A model generated the notes under the pieces. The model had not been told where the DNA came from and did not search any database. It saw only the letters and a program-made list of their open reading frames with translations. Below, piece after piece: positions 4,326-28,216 of a stretch of DNA of 34,611 nt. The stretch spans positions 1 to 34,611 of the forward strand of contig VMGU01000001.1 of NCBI GenBank assembly GCA_007376745.1. The letters run 5' to 3'. This DNA comes from Parcubacteria group bacterium Athens0714_26. Lineage in GTDB: Bacteria > Patescibacteriota > Minisyncoccia > UBA6257 > 02-FULL-45-10c. The translations under genes and the position numbers were made by a program. Each line of letters opens with the position of its first letter. Position 1 is the stretch's first letter.

Positions 4326-4396
4326 AGCCGAAGGTGAGAATCGAACTCACGTCTCTACTTTACGAAAGTAATGTTCTACCACTGAACTACTCCGGC
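4326..4396 (-). tRNA. tRNA-Thr (anticodon CGU)
   Basis: Hand-folded cloverleaf: acceptor gccggag/cttcggc, anticodon loop ttCGTaa, T arm gtgag-ttcgatt-ctcac. No CCA is encoded. Confidence 0.85.
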
Positions 4397-4485: not shown

Positions 4486-4556
4486 AGCGAGATACCGGAA
4501 TCGGACCGGCGCCCTTACCTTGGGAAGGTAATGTACTACCACTATACTAATCTCGC
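4486..4556 (-). tRNA. tRNA-Gly (anticodon CCC)
   Basis: Hand-folded cloverleaf: acceptor gcgagat/atctcgc, anticodon loop ttCCCaa, T arm gccgg-tccgatt-ccggt. Confidence 0.85.
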
Positions 4557-12923: not shown

Positions 12924-13274
12924 GTGAAGCTCCACGACCTACATCACTTTATTCTGACCAAAACTCGTAGTATCATCTATATAGAAAAACTATCAATACT
13001 TATGGAGGATTTTGAAACAGCAAGCAGAAAATATTTTAAGGTATTAGAAGATAGGGGCAAACAATCCAAAGTTTACAAGCCGCATCAGCTAGCAGGATTA
13101 GAGCTGGCAAAAATCCTGGACGACGACAATCATAAATCTCTTTACATAAAACTGGCGAAATTCTATGATAATACTTCACTTTTAAGTCTGGCAAAACGAA
13201 TAGACGAACGAAAGGATATCGACAACAAGGGAGCTTATTTTATGAAAATGCTTAAAAGTTTAAAAAATGATTGA
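12924..13274 (+). CDS. hypothetical protein (116 aa from GTG; could start at the internal ATG, residue 27)
   Basis: ORF only. It overlaps the def start by 8 nt. Confidence 0.4.
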   Translation: MKLHDLHHFILTKTRSIIYIEKLSILMEDFETASRKYFKVLEDRGKQSKVYKPHQLAGLELAKILDDDNHKSLYIKLAKFYDNTSLLSLAKRIDERKDIDNKGAYFMKMLKSLKND

Positions 13275-13779
13275 TTTAATTTTTACAATCAACGATAAAA
13301 AGGAAGAAAAATTTTTAAGACGCAAAACGTCTAGTTTTAATTTCGCCAAACACAAAAAACAGGATATCAAAGATTTAATTATTAAAATGAGAAATATTAT
13401 GAAAAAGGCCAGCGGCATCGGATTAAGCGCCAACCAAATCGGACTGGATTCAAGATTTTTTATAGCAAAAGTAGAAAATAAATTTTATACGGTATTTAAT
13501 CCGGAAATAGCAAAAGAATCCAAAGAAACGGCAACGGAGGACGAAGGCTGCCTAAGCGTGCCCGATCTTTTCGGGCCGGTAGAACGGGCGGAAAAAATAA
13601 CTCTTACGGGTTCGGACGCCAATAATAAAAAAATAAAAATCAAGGCATGGGGACTTTTGTCGCGGGTTTTCCAGCACGAAATAGACCACCTGAACGGCAA
13701 ACTTTTTATCGACAAGGCCAAAACTTTACGAAAATACGAAAATGGACACGAAAATACGAAAAAGGGCAGTAGTTTATAA
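13267..13779 (+). CDS. def: peptide deformylase
   Basis: Motifs GIGLSANQIG, EGCLSVP and QHEIDHLNG are present. The C-terminal tail (LRKYENGHENTKKGSSL) is encoded by the cassette repeat. Confidence 0.9.
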   Translation: MIDLIFTINDKKEEKFLRRKTSSFNFAKHKKQDIKDLIIKMRNIMKKASGIGLSANQIGLDSRFFIAKVENKFYTVFNPEIAKESKETATEDEGCLSVPDLFGPVERAEKITLTGSDANNKKIKIKAWGLLSRVFQHEIDHLNGKLFIDKAKTLRKYENGHENTKKGSSL

Positions 13780-14190
13780 AGCCGATTTGTTATACCCCGA
13801 ACTATGCTATCGAATCATTGGCATAGTATTTGATATTTTTTATAAAGTTGGATATGGCTTCACAGAAAAACAATACGGAAAAGCTATAGAAATAGCATTA
13901 AAAGAAACGGGGCTTGATTATAAAAAAGAATTGCCAGTAAGAATAAATTATAAAAATACCTTCTTAACCACTAATTACTTAGATTTTTTAATTGACAACA
14001 AAATTATTCTTGAATTAAAACAGGGTAATTTATTTCTCAAAAAAGATATTGACCAGATATATAAATATCTTAAAATTACCAATTTAAAACTTGGCTTACT
14101 AATAAAATTTACACGGTCGGGTGTAAAATTTAAAAGAATAGTCAATATAAATTAATTTCGTATTATTCGTATGTTTTCGTATTTTCGTAA
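13726..14190 (+). mobile_element. GxxExxY-gene cassette with perfect 17-bp terminal inverted repeats (ttacgaaaatacgaaaa) and TACGAA iteron arrays
   Basis: 13726-13742 equals the reverse complement of 14174-14190. There are 4-5 TACGAA/TTCGTA units at each end. The cassette is inserted between def and fmt. Confidence 0.6.
13742..14155 (+). CDS. GxxExxY-family PD-(D/E)XK nuclease-fold protein (137 aa, apparently intact)
   Basis: GYGFTEKQY (GxxExxY), then DFLIDNKIILELK (D...ELK core), then LKLGLLIKF. Confidence 0.8.
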   Translation: MDTKIRKRAVVYKADLLYPELCYRIIGIVFDIFYKVGYGFTEKQYGKAIEIALKETGLDYKKELPVRINYKNTFLTTNYLDFLIDNKIILELKQGNLFLKKDIDQIYKYLKITNLKLGLLIKFTRSGVKFKRIVNIN

Positions 14191-15049
14191 GCTCAAATTC
14201 GTATTTTTTGGTTCACCGGAATTCGCGGCGATTATACTGAATAAATTGGTAAAAGCAGGTTATAAGCCGGAACTTTTAGTTTGCGGTCCGGACGAACCGC
14301 TTGGCCGCAAAAAAATACTCACTCCGCCGGCGACCAAACAACTTGCCACAACAAGCGGCTGGCAAATAAAAATAATTCAGCCGGAAAATCTTAAAATGAC
14401 GGCTGAAGAAATTAAAAATATTAACGCCGATTTATTTATCGTCGCCGCTTATGCCAAAATCATTCCCAAAGAAATAATAGAATTGCCCAGACTCGGAACG
14501 ATTGGCGTCCACCCCTCGCTTTTACCGTATTATCGAGGCGCGTCCCCTATTCAAAACGCGCTGATAAACGGAGAAAAAGAAACCGGCACCTCTATTTTCC
14601 TAATAGATGAAAAAGTAGACCACGGCCCAGTCCTGGCCAAAAATAAACAACTGGTAACGGAAGATTCAAATTACACTACTTTAAGCCAAGAACTCGCCGA
14701 ATTGAGCGCCGACACTTTAATAAAAATTCTACCTGATTTTCTCGCGGGTCAAATCAAACCCGAGCCACAAGACGAAAACAAAGCCACTTACACTAAAAAA
14801 TTTATTACTGAAGACGGGAAGGTGAATCTGGATAGCGACTCGCCGGAGATTATTTTCAGAAAAATCAAAGCGCTAAATCCCAGTCCCGGAGTTTTTACGA
14901 CAATAAAAGCCAATAAAAAAGAAATTCGCTTTAAGCTTTTGGACGCTGTTTTAAATAATGGAAAATTAGAACTGTTACGGGTTCAGCCCGAAAACAAAAA
15001 TCCTATGCCGTATAAAGAATTTTTACGCGGCTATCACTTAGATACTTAA
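14171..15049 (+). CDS. fmt: methionyl-tRNA formyltransferase
   Basis: The HPSLLPYYRGASPIQ motif and a C-terminal Fmt domain are present. Its start codon and first ~7 codons lie inside the right inverted repeat of the cassette. Confidence 0.9.
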   Translation: MFSYFRKLKFVFFGSPEFAAIILNKLVKAGYKPELLVCGPDEPLGRKKILTPPATKQLATTSGWQIKIIQPENLKMTAEEIKNINADLFIVAAYAKIIPKEIIELPRLGTIGVHPSLLPYYRGASPIQNALINGEKETGTSIFLIDEKVDHGPVLAKNKQLVTEDSNYTTLSQELAELSADTLIKILPDFLAGQIKPEPQDENKATYTKKFITEDGKVNLDSDSPEIIFRKIKALNPSPGVFTTIKANKKEIRFKLLDAVLNNGKLELLRVQPENKNPMPYKEFLRGYHLDT

Positions 15050-16670: not shown

Positions 16671-16745
16671 GGTCCTGTCGTCTAGCCTGGCCTAGGACAT
16701 CGGCTTTTCAAGCCGGTAACACGGGTTCGAATCCCGTCGGGACTA
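16671..16745 (+). tRNA. tRNA-Glu (anticodon UUC)
   Basis: Cloverleaf nearly collinear with the E. coli tRNA-Glu pattern as I recall it: GUC-UAG...AGGAC D arm, anticodon loop ttTTCaa, T arm acggg-ttcgaat-cccgt. Confidence 0.9.
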
Positions 16746-17628: not shown

Positions 17629-18741
17629 ATGAAACCATCTGTTATTTTAGCTATTGAAACCAGTTGCGACGACACCTCTATCGCTTTAGTGAAATGCCAA
17701 GGCGGCATAAAAAATCCGCGTTTTGAAGTTTTAAAAAGCGTTGTTTCTTCACAAATTGCCGTACACAGACCGTTCGGCGGCGTAGTGCCAAACCTTGCCA
17801 AACGCGAACATATTAAAAATCTACCGATTATCTGGAAGCAATTCGCTAAAAGCCATCCGCCGTCAACCATCAACCAGATAGCCGTTACTGTCGGACCAGG
17901 CCTTGAACCCGCTCTTTGGACAGGAATAACTTTCGCCCAGGAACTTTCAGAAAAAATTAAAAAGCCGCTTATGGGCGTTAACCATCTGGAGGGTCATCTA
18001 TATTCCGATTTATTATCAACATCAAAAATCACAGAAATTAAGTTCCCTGCCACCGCCTTGATTGTCAGCGGCGGGCACACAATTCTTTTAAATATGAAAA
18101 ATTTAAATCATTGGACCAAACTCGGTGAAACTCTGGATGACGCGGCAGGCGAAGCCTTTGATAAAGTGGCAAAAATGCTCGGCCTTCCCTATCCCGGCGG
18201 CCCGGAAATTGATAAACTGGCGGTTAAAGGCAACCCTAACGCAATTAAATTCCCCCGCCCTCTTTTAAATCCGCAGCCAAACAAGAATAAACAAAATAAA
18301 TACAATTTCAGCTTTTCTGGCCTTAAAACTTCCGTGTTGTATTACTTACGAAAATACGAAAATAACGAAAATACGAAACAAGAAAAAAATATTCAACAAT
18401 CTGCTTTTCGTACTTTCGTACCAGTTCTTAATTTCGTAAATAAGGCCGATGTGGCCGCTTCTTTCCAACAAGCAGCAACTGATGTATTAGTTCAAAAAAC
18501 CGTCCGCGCCGCCAAGGAATTTGAATCAAAAACAATAATGCTTTCCGGCGGAGTTTCCGCCAACAAACTGCTCCGCAACACCCTAAAGCAAAAATCCGAG
18601 GAATTAAAAATAAATTTTCTGGCTCCGGAATTTGAATTTATTACCGATAATGCCGCCATGATAGCCGCCGCGGCGTATATTAATCTGCTTTCTAAAAAGA
18701 AAAAATTAAAGATAGAAGCTCGATCGGATTTAACCGTATAA
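17629..18741 (+). CDS. tsaD: tRNA N6-adenosine threonylcarbamoyltransferase TsaD
   Basis: GVNHLEGHL, SGGHT and GGVSAN motifs are present. It carries an extra segment at 18346-18440. Confidence 0.9.
   Translation: MKPSVILAIETSCDDTSIALVKCQGGIKNPRFEVLKSVVSSQIAVHRPFGGVVPNLAKREHIKNLPIIWKQFAKSHPPSTINQIAVTVGPGLEPALWTGITFAQELSEKIKKPLMGVNHLEGHLYSDLLSTSKITEIKFPATALIVSGGHTILLNMKNLNHWTKLGETLDDAAGEAFDKVAKMLGLPYPGGPEIDKLAVKGNPNAIKFPRPLLNPQPNKNKQNKYNFSFSGLKTSVLYYLRKYENNENTKQEKNIQQSAFRTFVPVLNFVNKADVAASFQQAATDVLVQKTVRAAKEFESKTIMLSGGVSANKLLRNTLKQKSEELKINFLAPEFEFITDNAAMIAAAAYINLLSKKKKLKIEARSDLTV
18346..18440 (+). mobile_element. gene-less miniature inverted-repeat insert (same TACGAA iterons as cassette 13726-14190) inside the tsaD reading frame
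   Basis: 18346-18362 is identical (17/17) to 13726-13742. 18405-18420 ttttcgtactttcgta is its inverted partner with 1 mismatch. Translated in-frame it reads LRKYENNENTKQ...AFRTFVP..NFVNK. Confidence 0.55.
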
Positions 18742-25823: not shown

Positions 25824-25905
25824 TGCTCGGGGCGGGAGTCGAACCCGCAAGCCTTACGGCGCAGCATCTTAAGTGCTGTGAGTTTGCCAATTTCTCCACC
25901 CGAGC
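25824..25905 (-). tRNA. tRNA-Leu (anticodon UAA)
   Basis: Acceptor gctcggg/cccgagc, anticodon loop ctTAAga, long variable arm, T arm gcggg-ttcgact-cccgc. Confidence 0.85.
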
Positions 25906-25946: not shown

Positions 25947-26170
25947 AGGCGTCGGTGAGAATCGAACTCACGTATAAGAGTTTTGTCCCGACGAAAAATT
26001 TGAGGCCTGGGCGAGAATCGAACTCGCGTATAAGAGTTTTGCAGACTCCTGCCTTACCACTTGGCTACCAGGCCGCCTCAAATTTTATGTCGGGATCCCG
26101 ACTTTCTTATTTTAATTTAAAATAGTGCGTCGGGACAGACAAATTTACCTTACCACTTGGCTACGACGCC
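25947..26170 (-). pseudogene. tRNA-Cys-like gene split into 5' and 3' halves by a ~150-nt insert that contains a complete tRNA-Cys
   Basis: The 5' half (26170-26136) reads ggcgtcg-ta-gccaagtggtaaggt. The 3' half (25984-25947) reads aaaactct-tatac-gtgag-ttcgatt-ctcac-cgacgcc-t. The acceptor and T stems pair perfectly. The anticodon-stem 5' strand is not complementary. Confidence 0.6.
26003..26074 (-). tRNA. tRNA-Cys (anticodon GCA), nested
   Basis: Acceptor ggcctgg/ccaggcc, D arm gcca-agtggta-aggc (A13:A22 type), anticodon loop ctGCAaa, T arm gcgag-ttcgatt-ctcgc, discriminator U. Confidence 0.85.
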
Positions 26171-28122: not shown

Positions 28123-28216
28123 GCTGAGGTGGCCGAGAGGCTGAAGGCGGCAGGTTGCTAACCTGTTATACGGGTTTAAATCCGTATCGAGAGTTCGAAT
28201 CTCTCCCTCACCGCCA
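28123..28216 (+). tRNA. tRNA-Ser (anticodon GCU) with encoded CCA, preceded by a 9-nt tandem duplicate of its 5' acceptor strand (28114-28122)
   Basis: D arm gccgagaggctgaaggc, anticodon loop ttGCTaa, long variable arm atacgg/ccgtat, T arm gagag-ttcgaat-ctctc, 3' end cctcacc-g-cca. The proximal 5' strand gctgagg gives a C2:C71 mismatch; the upstream copy ggtgagg pairs perfectly. Confidence 0.85.

Follow-up and report, generated by a model that had tools for sequence, protein, structure and literature searches.

A GxxExxY nuclease gene within inverted word arrays between def and fmt of a Parcubacteria bacterium: a putative mobile cassette with gene-less derivatives

Introduction

The genes def and fmt of Parcubacteria group bacterium Athens0714_26 are separated by a 465-bp unit in which an intact GxxExxY nuclease ORF is enclosed by a perfect 17-nt inverted repeat. 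This unit is probably a nuclease cassette that is, or once was, mobile and that has MITE-like derivatives, in the manner of the REPIN/RAYT system, although cutting by the nuclease is inferred and no biochemistry or genetics supports it. The function of GxxExxY proteins is listed as unknown (PMC3424549), and the searchable literature on GxxExxY, PF13366, TIGR04256 and CPR palindromes has been found to be essentially silent, with no description of such cassettes. The family is very large and multi-copy: the GxxExxY/PDDEXK_3 profile matches 16,719 representative clusters (50% identity) across bacteria. The analysis started from a 34.6-kb stretch of DNA (34,611 nt, hereafter the window), which is the visible part of the source genome; copies in this genome were counted within the window only.

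Layout of the cassette between def and fmt

The cassette is oriented in the direction of the operon, on the forward strand, with def (peptide deformylase, 13267-13779) upstream and fmt (methionyl-tRNA formyltransferase, 14171-15049) downstream, both identified as ORFs with profile matches. A preliminary description, made from the sequence alone, had reported perfect 17-bp inverted ends, and TTACGAAAATACGAAAA (13726-13742) does recur, after 431 nt, as its exact reverse complement TTTTCGTATTTTCGTAA (14174-14190). The description had bounded the cassette by this 17-mer; the functional unit is instead an arm of four TACNAA words at fixed spacing. The left arm (13726-13763) comprises two word pairs spaced by 8, 12 and 8, with TACGAA at 13727, 13735 and 13755 and CACGAA at 13747, and can be aligned with the arms of loci L125, L214 and L019 and of the copy in tsaD described below. 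The right arm (14156-14190) contains four TTCGTA words, at 14157, 14166, 14176 and 14184, spaced from the outside by 8, 10 and 9. The four to five words per end counted previously are four on either side, and the fifth word on the right (14198-14203) lies inside fmt, in the F-V codons of KFVFFG. This word is present in L125 too and missing from L203, L205 and L206; either it belongs to the host by coincidence, or the element truly ends there.

The nuclease ORF (13742-14155, forward strand; 137 aa), supported by profile matches, a structural model and dN/dS, starts with an ATG (13742-13744) made up of the final base of the left repeat and the next two, as previously read, so placed that one word pair of the left arm precedes it and the other follows. 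The reading frame of def passes through the left arm, and the C-terminal tail of the protein (LRKYENGHENTKKGSSL) together with the stop codon is encoded by element DNA (13726-13779). The left repeat had been said to encode both; the stop codon is located at 13777-13779, 14 nt past the last word and within the GxxExxY ORF. The start codon of fmt and codons 2-7 (MFSYFRK) are encoded by the right arm (14171-14190), but the ATG (14171), which had been placed within the right repeat, is inside the word array and not inside the 17-mer: it occupies the spacer between the right-arm word pairs, 3 nt ahead of the 17-mer. The ancestral position of the fmt ATG now reads CTC (L8).

The GxxExxY protein

The ORF product matches PF13366 (PDDEXK_3; E 1.2e-27, 97.1 bits against a cut-off of 22) and TIGR04256 (GxxExxY, NCBIfam; E 6.6e-28, 97.4 bits against a cut-off of 35). 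Residues G39-xx-E42-xx-Y45, D81, E91-L-K93 and Q105-xxx-Y109 are invariant in 21 homologues, in agreement with the intact ORF and D...ELK core originally proposed. The ORF evolves under purifying selection (dN/dS about 0.09); the repeat-encoded residues 1-18 of the protein are predicted to be disordered. The AF2 model (pLDDT 90.7) has Cas4 SSO0001 (E 3.5e-5, TM 0.56) and lambda exonuclease as the best PDB neighbours in Foldseek, which also include AdnAB, MGME1, splicing endonucleases and Hjc, with I-Bth0305I among the weak ones. Judged by this model, the protein is a minimal Cas4/RecB-like PD-(D/E)XK nuclease, with an alpha-beta-beta-beta-alpha-beta core like that of nucleases of known structure; a sequence search of the PDB retrieved no homologue, and the neighbours exist at the fold level only. 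The existence of homologues with two fused domains suggests that the protein may act as a dimer.

No DDE, HUH, serine or tyrosine transposase is encoded in the cassette, whose sole ORF is that of the 137-aa PD-(D/E)XK protein; no HUH-type domain was found in this ORF, since its Pfam and NCBIfam matches are PDDEXK_3 and GxxExxY only. The PADLOC models yielded no family at E <= 0.01 for the protein, so that the criterion for a defence component is unmet, and a scan of viral contigs with a Bacteroides homologue found nothing.

A family of cassettes with four-word arms

The sample of related cassettes comprised 80 loci from one clade with 39-70% identity to the query. The flanks of 70 related GxxExxY genes from metagenomes were scored for inverted repeats, a score of at least 15 being counted, along with 180 shifted controls. 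Flanking inverted word arrays, which the preliminary description had proposed to look for around other GxxExxY genes, were detected for 62 of the 70 genes and for one of the 180 controls; clear arrays were missing in 8 of 70 CPR copies and in 5 of 9 non-CPR copies. Across 137 arms, the pattern is one of four TACNAA words with spacings of 7-8, 10-11 and 8 nt (the middle one reaching 12 nt, as in the left arm of the def|fmt copy of the window), the arm being ~35 nt long and the enclosed gene ~130 codons. The lengths of the loops between the arms are bimodal, with 22 empty copies (0-77 nt) and 47 loaded ones (377-463 nt). In 37 of 38 loaded copies, the gene upstream points the same way as the cassette and ends within a few nucleotides of the arm. 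Donation of translation signals to the neighbouring genes, as initially inferred, applies to the def|fmt copies (the window, L125 and L068) but not to most other copies, where the preceding gene stops before the element and the following one starts after it. Outside the CPR, in Bacteroidota, Alphaproteobacteria and Gemmatimonadota, GxxExxY genes of Bacteroides, Bernardetia, Sphingomonas (at fabD|fabG) and Gemmatirosa lie within analogous arrays of different words. Together, the cassettes and the gene-less miniatures constitute a widespread and apparently undescribed family.

Within the window, TACGAAAATACGAA occurs 7 times at up to 2 mismatches against 0.85 expected, a count that none of 100 shuffles reached, and pairs of the form TACNAA-N1-3-TACNAA are found only at the def|fmt locus and at 18346-18439 (shuffle mean 0.6). 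An exact scan of genome contigs with the 17-mer returned 119 matches, mostly lone chance ones in unrelated phyla, among which ~20 CPR loci were informative.

Gene-less copies

The second copy in the window is a gene-less 94-bp miniature (18346-18439; left arm 18346-18378, loop of ~27 nt, right arm 18406-18439) hosted by the tsaD ORF (17629-18741, forward strand) and translated in frame as a segment of TsaD (LRKYENNENTKQEKNIQQSAFRTFVPVLNFV), which accounts for 19-24 extra residues at this position relative to L203 and L206. The left arms of the two window copies are identical over the first 18 nt, followed by one indel and 1-2 substitutions. Derivation of the tsaD miniature itself by deletion was considered; the similarity of its loop to the 3' end of the ORF is suggestive but too weak. 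The 22 empty copies are ~60-140 bp long, with inverted four-word arms and no coding capacity. In L160, the copy at 1067-1207, whose arms are identical, has kept the two ORF ends in its loop and is an internal-deletion derivative of a loaded copy, which means that an empty copy can come from a loaded one by deletion. At least some miniatures, one at the minimum, originate in this way. In L154, L181 and L187, loaded and empty copies on the same contig have common, lineage-specific arms.

The gene-less copies resemble MITEs in size, in their inverted repeats and in ends held in common with an autonomous element, and fall short of them in target-site duplication (TSD): direct matches from flank to flank in 65 elements equalled those of a re-paired control. 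In the loci compared, no filled and empty sites were similar enough to fix the exact junction.

Empty sites, other loci and residence at def|fmt

Empty def-fmt junctions, for which a search had been suggested, were found in the syntenic loci L203 and L206, where repeats are absent and the def stop touches or overlaps the fmt ATG with nothing between the genes, while all that L205 retains of the element is a left arm in decay within the tail of def. In the element-free relatives, def ends 6 residues earlier and the tails are unrelated; the idea that in L203 and L206 these tails derive from arms by decay was not convincing and has been dropped. The def|fmt copies of L125 and L068 carry an element-borne def stop and fmt start as in the window, and the fmt start region of L125 is homologous (MISYFRKPNFVFFG). 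By this comparison of sequences, the 465-bp unit is shown to be an insertion at the def|fmt boundary, as had been supposed from the usual adjacency of the two genes.

The closest relative of the cassette, P0002 (83% aa identity, same arms), is located not at def|fmt but at gspF|pilin, as is P0038, a decayed and frameshifted copy of P0002 with the same arms; the gspF|pilin copies of this element lineage occur in L214 and L215. The flank arrays, the empty junctions, the second locus and the gene-less miniatures all support the original proposal of a small selfish, repeat-bounded cassette. Available sequences support the view that the cassette behaves as a mobile element; homing and transposition remain unresolved, and no activity on the repeats has been demonstrated. 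At def|fmt, the divergence of the GxxExxY proteins (64% and 57% for L125 and L068, respectively) parallels that of def (59% and 48%), which is a better fit for long vertical residence or domestication than for ongoing mobility. The def|fmt copy may therefore be an old, vertically inherited resident.

Comparison with known systems

In REPIN/RAYT systems, REP doublets are mobilised by a REP-associated tyrosine transposase (PMC3116915, PMC3337134). The cassettes have in common with them a lone small enzyme gene between inverted copies of its presumed target repeat, many dispersed gene-less palindromic doublets in the same genome, and a long, largely vertical persistence at extragenic sites within operons. 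However, the enzyme is of the PD-(D/E)XK type (Cas4/RecB-like) rather than HUH/Y1, the arms are four direct 6-nt words whereas REPs are individually palindromic hairpins with a GTAG tag, and several loaded copies can be present on one contig, as in L215. Membership in REPIN/RAYT, defined by a Y1 HUH gene and REP hairpins with a GTAG or CGTC tag, is unmet. With the Correia and Rickettsia palindromic elements (PMC10969869), the family shares short, inverted-repeat-bounded multi-copy units at gene boundaries and the capacity to form transcript hairpins, and the in-frame insertion into the essential gene tsaD, which gives a translated peptide insert, is like that of the Rickettsia elements. Unlike Correia elements, which duplicate TA, the cassettes have no detected TSD; unlike bacterial MITEs, the family has subterminal multi-word arms instead of simple TIRs at the ends and an evident parent, in which a nuclease gene takes the place of one for a DDE transposase.

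Free-standing homing endonuclease genes include the intergenic seg and mob genes of T4-like phages, and I-Ssp6803I is a PD-(D/E)XK homing enzyme. As in the present case, a small nuclease gene is wedged between normally adjacent conserved genes, neither of which is inactivated, the same site is filled in divergent genomes, and decayed copies occur; to our knowledge, inverted word arrays are not a feature of homing genes, and neither are gene-less miniatures scattered over many sites. The ORF-bearing intervening sequences of 23S rRNA in Leptospira and Coxiella, with S23p (four-helix-bundle) ORFs, likewise place a small selfish ORF in the loop of a long inverted-repeat stem within an essential transcript. 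They differ in residing in rRNA, in being removed by RNase III and in encoding another protein family, whereas the cassettes reside in operons of protein-coding genes and gave no signature of an RNA helix. Tn7-like ends also consist of several direct protein-binding words per end, inverted between the ends, and TnsA of Tn7, which takes part in end cleavage, is a PD-(D/E)XK nuclease with a restriction-enzyme fold. Yet Tn7 depends on TnsB, a DDE transposase, and leaves TSDs of 5 bp, while the nuclease is the only protein encoded by the cassette and no TSD is seen.

Proposed mechanism and alternative explanations

In the mechanism that we favour, the nuclease would recognise the TACNAA words of both arms as DNA, most likely in dimeric or higher oligomeric form, which is inferred without binding data but in line with the conservation of the words between arms and the lack of G:U bias given below, and would cut at or near the ends of the element, for which there are no cleavage data. 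Cutting would then promote the copying of elements, loaded or empty, or their movement, without TSD, the chemistry of insertion being undefined. We know of no covalent intermediates formed by PD-(D/E)XK nucleases, so rejoining would need host functions. The broader proposition, that GxxExxY proteins are the mobilising enzymes of an unrecognised class of prokaryotic elements, recognise short-word arrays in the inverted arms and move both their own cassettes and MITE-like palindromes without TSD, the latter to intercistronic spacers and now and then in frame to genes, is put forward only tentatively and with some doubt; if it is true, the chemistry of transposition or homing would be unlike that of all known IS families. 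Mobilisation of the palindromes by the nuclease would represent a new enzyme class for bacterial mobile DNA and explain one class of palindromic repeats of the streamlined genomes of the CPR. A way would also be shown for selfish DNA to reside between essential genes (def|fmt, fabD|fabG) or even within one (tsaD), namely by bringing along a stop and a start codon or an open frame. The GxxExxY family gains a candidate DNA partner, namely arms with a consensus and spacing and with gene-less derivatives, and hence a directly testable role.

A rather unlikely but viable alternative is that a homing endonuclease gene parasitises an independent family of palindromes and spreads only by cutting the empty ones, whose loops then receive the gene through recombination over the homologous 35-45-nt arms, conserved sites such as def|fmt being re-invaded. 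This would account for the invariable position of the ORF in the loop, for the lack of TSD and for the occupation of def|fmt in three divergent lineages (the window, L125 and L068) while closer relatives are empty; the L205 relic and the P0038 frameshift fit a cycle of gain, decay and loss, and PD-(D/E)XK homing endonucleases do exist, I-Bth0305I being a weak fold neighbour. Against this, the empty L160 copy (1067-1207) derives from a loaded one by deletion, many unrelated sites hold loaded copies, the arms are short for homologous repair, and the arrival of empty palindromes at new sites is left unexplained.

It is less plausible still, and in our opinion improbable, that the unit is a domesticated, no longer mobile intercistronic module in which the arms, as a hairpin or a protein-binding site, tune the processing, stability or coupling of the operon mRNA, the nuclease being self-regulating or serving the host. 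The strong purifying selection on the ORF, the apparent co-divergence with def at def|fmt and the strictly intra-operonic, co-directional placement are consistent with such a module, as are the predicted closing of the transcript through arm pairing (z -4.85) and the predicted hairpin of the tsaD insert (-21.4 kcal/mol); RNase III processes Correia elements (PMC10969869). The conservation of the arms speaks otherwise: positions 1, 2, 3, 5 and 6 of the words are 97-99.6% identical between arms, compared with 73.5% for position 4 and 74% for the spacers, and no excess of G:U was found among the sense-strand arm mismatches (35 vs. 45). Since complementarity is not maintained in the spacers or at position 4 and a G:U bias is lacking, no sign of selection for an RNA helix is apparent, and the RNA-helix hypothesis is disfavoured. 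A domesticated module is also difficult to reconcile with the presence of the same lineage at different loci, with decayed and deleted copies, with close relatives that lack the element at def|fmt, and with one copy within coding sequence. Finally, the notion that the repeats are a chance or codon-driven feature of low-complexity A/T-rich coding sequence and the ORF an ordinary gene, which the window GC of 39%, words free of stop codons in most frames and the mostly lone chance matches among the 119 genome-wide 17-mer hits might encourage, has virtually no support left and is already refuted by the shuffle controls for 17-mer and word pairs, the excess of real over shifted flanks, the fixed four-word architecture of the arms and the orthologous sites without the element.

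No Rfam family matched at the element, six tRNAs being the only matches in the window at gathering score. A scan for promoters and terminators gave an overall count not clearly above that of shuffles and no convincing promoter belonging to the cassette. The same scan listed promoter-like sites at 14049-14076 and 14139-14166, in the cassette upstream of fmt.

The def-fmt element and its miniature in tsaD

The preliminary description placed a GxxExxY gene with inverted ends between def (peptide deformylase) and fmt (methionyl-tRNA formyltransferase), and its structural claims were borne out. The exact 17-nt inverted repeat (TTACGAAAATACGAAAA, 13726-13742; reverse complement, 14174-14190; 431 nt apart) was recovered along with the gene order def (13267-13779), a 137-aa ORF (13742-14155) and fmt (14171-15049), as were the iteron arrays, which consist of three TACGAA words and one CACGAA on the left and four TTCGTA words on the right, with a fifth within fmt. 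The middle ORF far exceeds the cut-offs of PF13366 (PDDEXK_3) and TIGR04256 (GxxExxY). The right boundary of the element could be either 14190 or 14203. The 14-mer TACGAAAATACGAA, with at most two mismatches, occurs 7 times in the window (39% GC) vs 0.85 expected, a count reached in none of 100 shuffles.

The same scan revealed a second word cluster at 18346-18439, a palindrome of 94 bp that has the same arms and, in its loop of about 27 nt, no gene, and which lies in frame within tsaD (17629-18741) and is translated as ...YYLRKYENNENTKQEKNIQQSAFRTFVPVLNFVNKAD..., 19-24 residues that are missing from the TsaD of syntenic relatives. The left arms of the two copies match exactly over their initial 18 nt; one indel and one or two substitutions account for the remaining differences. 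No other paired TACNAA words were found in the window, a stretch of just 34.6 kb from the source genome. The tsaD of another contig (L019:4237-5449, DAIDAM010000003.1) has a TACGAA palindrome almost where the window copy lies, together with three more heptamer-repeat inserts (AATCCGG/AAATTTC, ACCAGAG, AAATCAG), and its reading frame shifts twice; possible explanations include a pseudogene and misassembly of the heptamer copy number.

Architecture across loci

A profile built from 21 homologues yielded 80 metagenome loci that represent one clade. Inverted arrays around other GxxExxY genes were sought by aligning the upstream flank with the reverse-complemented downstream flank: 62 of the 70 evaluable loci score at least 15, vs 1 of 180 control windows shifted by 1.3-2 kb. 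An arm comprises four 6-nt words in two pairs (start-to-start spacing 7-8 / 10-11 / 8; 137 arms), with the consensus cTACgAA(a)tTACgAAt-nnn-TACgAAtaTACgAAt. The ORF ATG usually lies -1 to +11 nt from the fourth word and, in a second group of loci that includes the window, between the two word pairs. When all loci are pooled, the spacing from one arm to the next inverted arm is bimodal: 22 elements are empty (gene-less; 0-77 nt) and 47 are loaded (gene-carrying; 377-463 nt), with no element in the range 100-349 nt.

The upstream ORF is co-directional in 37 of the 38 loaded elements for which one could be called. The stop codon of that ORF falls only a few nucleotides from the outer arm end, and the downstream ATG is located about 0-9 nt past the inverted repeat when this is extended maximally, or 4-16 nt past the last word, so that the elements occupy the very short gaps between operon genes. 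On two contigs (L132:1205-1400; L141:2365-2483 and downstream of 2917), loaded elements adjoin tandem arrays in which TACGAA occurs up to 12-14 times, organized in repeat units of about 26 nt; these look like local amplification of arms.

Filled and empty sites

The orthologous def-fmt site carries the element in some lineages and lacks it in others. The nearest Fmt homologues are about 60-64% identical to the window Fmt, and three of them were traced to syntenic contigs (L203, L205 and L206) with the gene order L27, S41 peptidase, small ORF, def, fmt, GT2, tsaD. A search for empty junctions succeeded in L203 and L206, where the def stop abuts or overlaps the fmt ATG (aaaTAAaATG, aaaTAATG), with neither a GxxExxY gene nor repeats. 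Fmt of these two contigs begins M-K-[YI]-[VI]; the equivalent window codon is CTC, and the sole usable fmt start in the window is the ATG within the right arm. In L205, the GxxExxY gene is absent, the coding sequence of the def tail (LRKYNYEEENARGQQL) is a degenerate left arm and fmt is called from an ATG matching the GxxExxY start, an arrangement that we read, from its sequence, as a probable deletion relic. A 116-aa ORF that overlaps the def start (12924-13274) has no Pfam or NCBIfam match; it is syntenic in L203, L205, L206 and L068, and is a conserved def-operon gene of unknown function.

The def-fmt copies are atypical in that neighboring genes read into the arms. The filled locus L125 (def 59%, fmt 49% and GxxExxY 64% identical to the window) has the same junctions, and its Fmt begins MISYFRKPNFVFFG. 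In L068 (Candidatus Harrisonbacteria; def 48%, GxxExxY 57%), def runs into the left arm of a loaded element at its 3' end, and an empty palindrome directly precedes the def ATG (reverse strand, about 146-228 of the first 1150 nt), so that def is bracketed by two elements. Nuclease divergence parallels def divergence among these copies, which fits either an old insertion, inherited vertically and subsequently lost from the L203/L206/L205 lineage, or multiple invasions of one site.

The closest homologue of the window protein, P0002 (83% amino acid identity), carries the same arms, the AAAATGGAYRCGAAA spacer included, and resides at a site (L214) unlike that in the window, between a gspF/pilC-like and a pilin-like gene. 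On contig L215, two loaded elements (833-1240 and 2501-2809) flank one gspF-like gene, the second ORF being cut short by a frameshift; a frameshifted copy occupies the L214-equivalent site, and the other element lies across the same gene. Empty and loaded copies on one contig carry the same lineage-specific arms in L154, L160, L181 and L187. At L160 1067-1207, identical arms enclose what is left of the ORF, ~50 nt of its start and ~25 nt of its end; this copy is an internal-deletion derivative. Empty copies of the same architecture are present in MAGs of Saccharibacteria, Moranbacteria, Doudnabacteria and Harrisonbacteria. No target-site duplication (TSD) was detectable at the elements, and there was no closely related filled/empty pair from which exact junctions could be read.

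Selection on the words and the ORF

The arms were compared with each other in 66 elements ascertained through the protein. Identity is 97-99.6% at word positions 1, 2, 3, 5 and 6, vs 73.5% at position 4 and 74% in spacers. Mismatches compatible with G:U pairing show no sense-strand excess (35 vs 45 antisense; 174 of transversion type). The words are conserved and the pairing is not, which points to a protein that recognizes the words in DNA and not to selection for an RNA helix. The arms are nonetheless capable of pairing: as RNA, the tsaD insert has a predicted fold of -21.4 kcal/mol (z -4.75), and the def-fmt unit is predicted to close by arm pairing. An Rfam scan of the window returned nothing besides six tRNA genes (4326-4396, 4486-4556, 16671-16745, 25824-25905, 26003-26074 and 28123-28213).

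The ORFs are intact in 68 of the 80 loci, and the remainder look decayed. For the window ORF compared with that of L214, dN is 0.079 and dS 0.87, and the ORF is under purifying selection.

The GxxExxY protein

The AlphaFold model of the 137-aa protein has a pLDDT of 90.7, with the repeat-encoded residues 1-18 disordered. Its best structural neighbors are Cas4 SSO0001 (E 3.5e-5, TM 0.56) and lambda-exonuclease-type enzymes, followed by the lower-scoring AdnAB nuclease, MGME1, tRNA-splicing endonucleases and Hjc. The residues invariant in the 21-homologue profile are G39, E42, Y45, D81, E91, K93, Q105 and Y109, and the D...ExK...QxxxY set is what we take to be the RecB/Cas4/lambda-exonuclease motif set. 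No relative was found in the PDB by sequence, and no PADLOC model matched the protein. The GxxExxY profile matches 16,719 representative clusters (50% identity) at E <=1e-3. Many homologues of 250-277 aa contain two complete tandem domains and are thus fused dimers (P0251, P0255, P0267, P0270 and others), which suggests that the active form is a dimer. The function of PDDEXK_3 was given as unknown in a 2012 superfamily survey (PMC3424549), and no description of GxxExxY cassettes was found in the literature searched.

Interpretation

Comparison of loci shows the def-fmt unit to be an inverted-repeat-bounded insertion carrying a putative nuclease; the element is found at different loci, gives rise to miniatures that lack the gene, and is maintained by selection. 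Presence and absence at one site, the shift of locus within a lineage, the arms shared by empty and loaded copies, the deletion derivative and the decayed ORFs are evidence of behavior as mobile DNA. We infer that the nuclease would bind the words of both arms and cut at the element ends, which would drive movement or copying without a TSD; no enzymatic activity has been shown. The rival readings are a homing gene that invades pre-existing palindromes through gene conversion, and a domesticated operon module. The nearest analogue in logic is REPIN/RAYT (PMC3116915, PMC3337134), and the in-frame tsaD copy recalls the Rickettsia palindromic elements (PMC10969869); membership in either family was rejected because the unit lacks any HUH or DDE enzyme, REP hairpin or TSD.

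Copies outside the CPR

In a small sample of nine plasmid-borne GxxExxY genes from non-CPR phyla, clear inverted arrays of at least three short words were present at four loci, those of Bacteroides finegoldii (L211, word CACAGAGG), Bernardetia (L213, CACAGAGA), Sphingomonas parapaucimobilis plasmid NZ_CP155749.1 (L218:595-1023, (C/G)RCGCGARG) and Gemmatirosa (L220, CGCAGAGG). In L218, the gene with its inverted CGCGAAG-type arrays separates fabD from fabG, which are normally adjacent, a parallel to the def-fmt case from another phylum. Treponema, a fusobacterium and Prevotella have weaker or direct repeats containing CACGGAT or ACAAATC, and two of the nine loci have no repeat arrays. On a Fusobacteria plasmid (L210:995-1369, CP102406.1), the gene is flanked by a 22-nt direct, not inverted, repeat (CAGATTTAATCCGTGTACCTAT), an architecture unlike that of the CPR copies. 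Across phyla, the words share a loose common shape, YRC-R-RA-N, and their GC content tracks that of the host.
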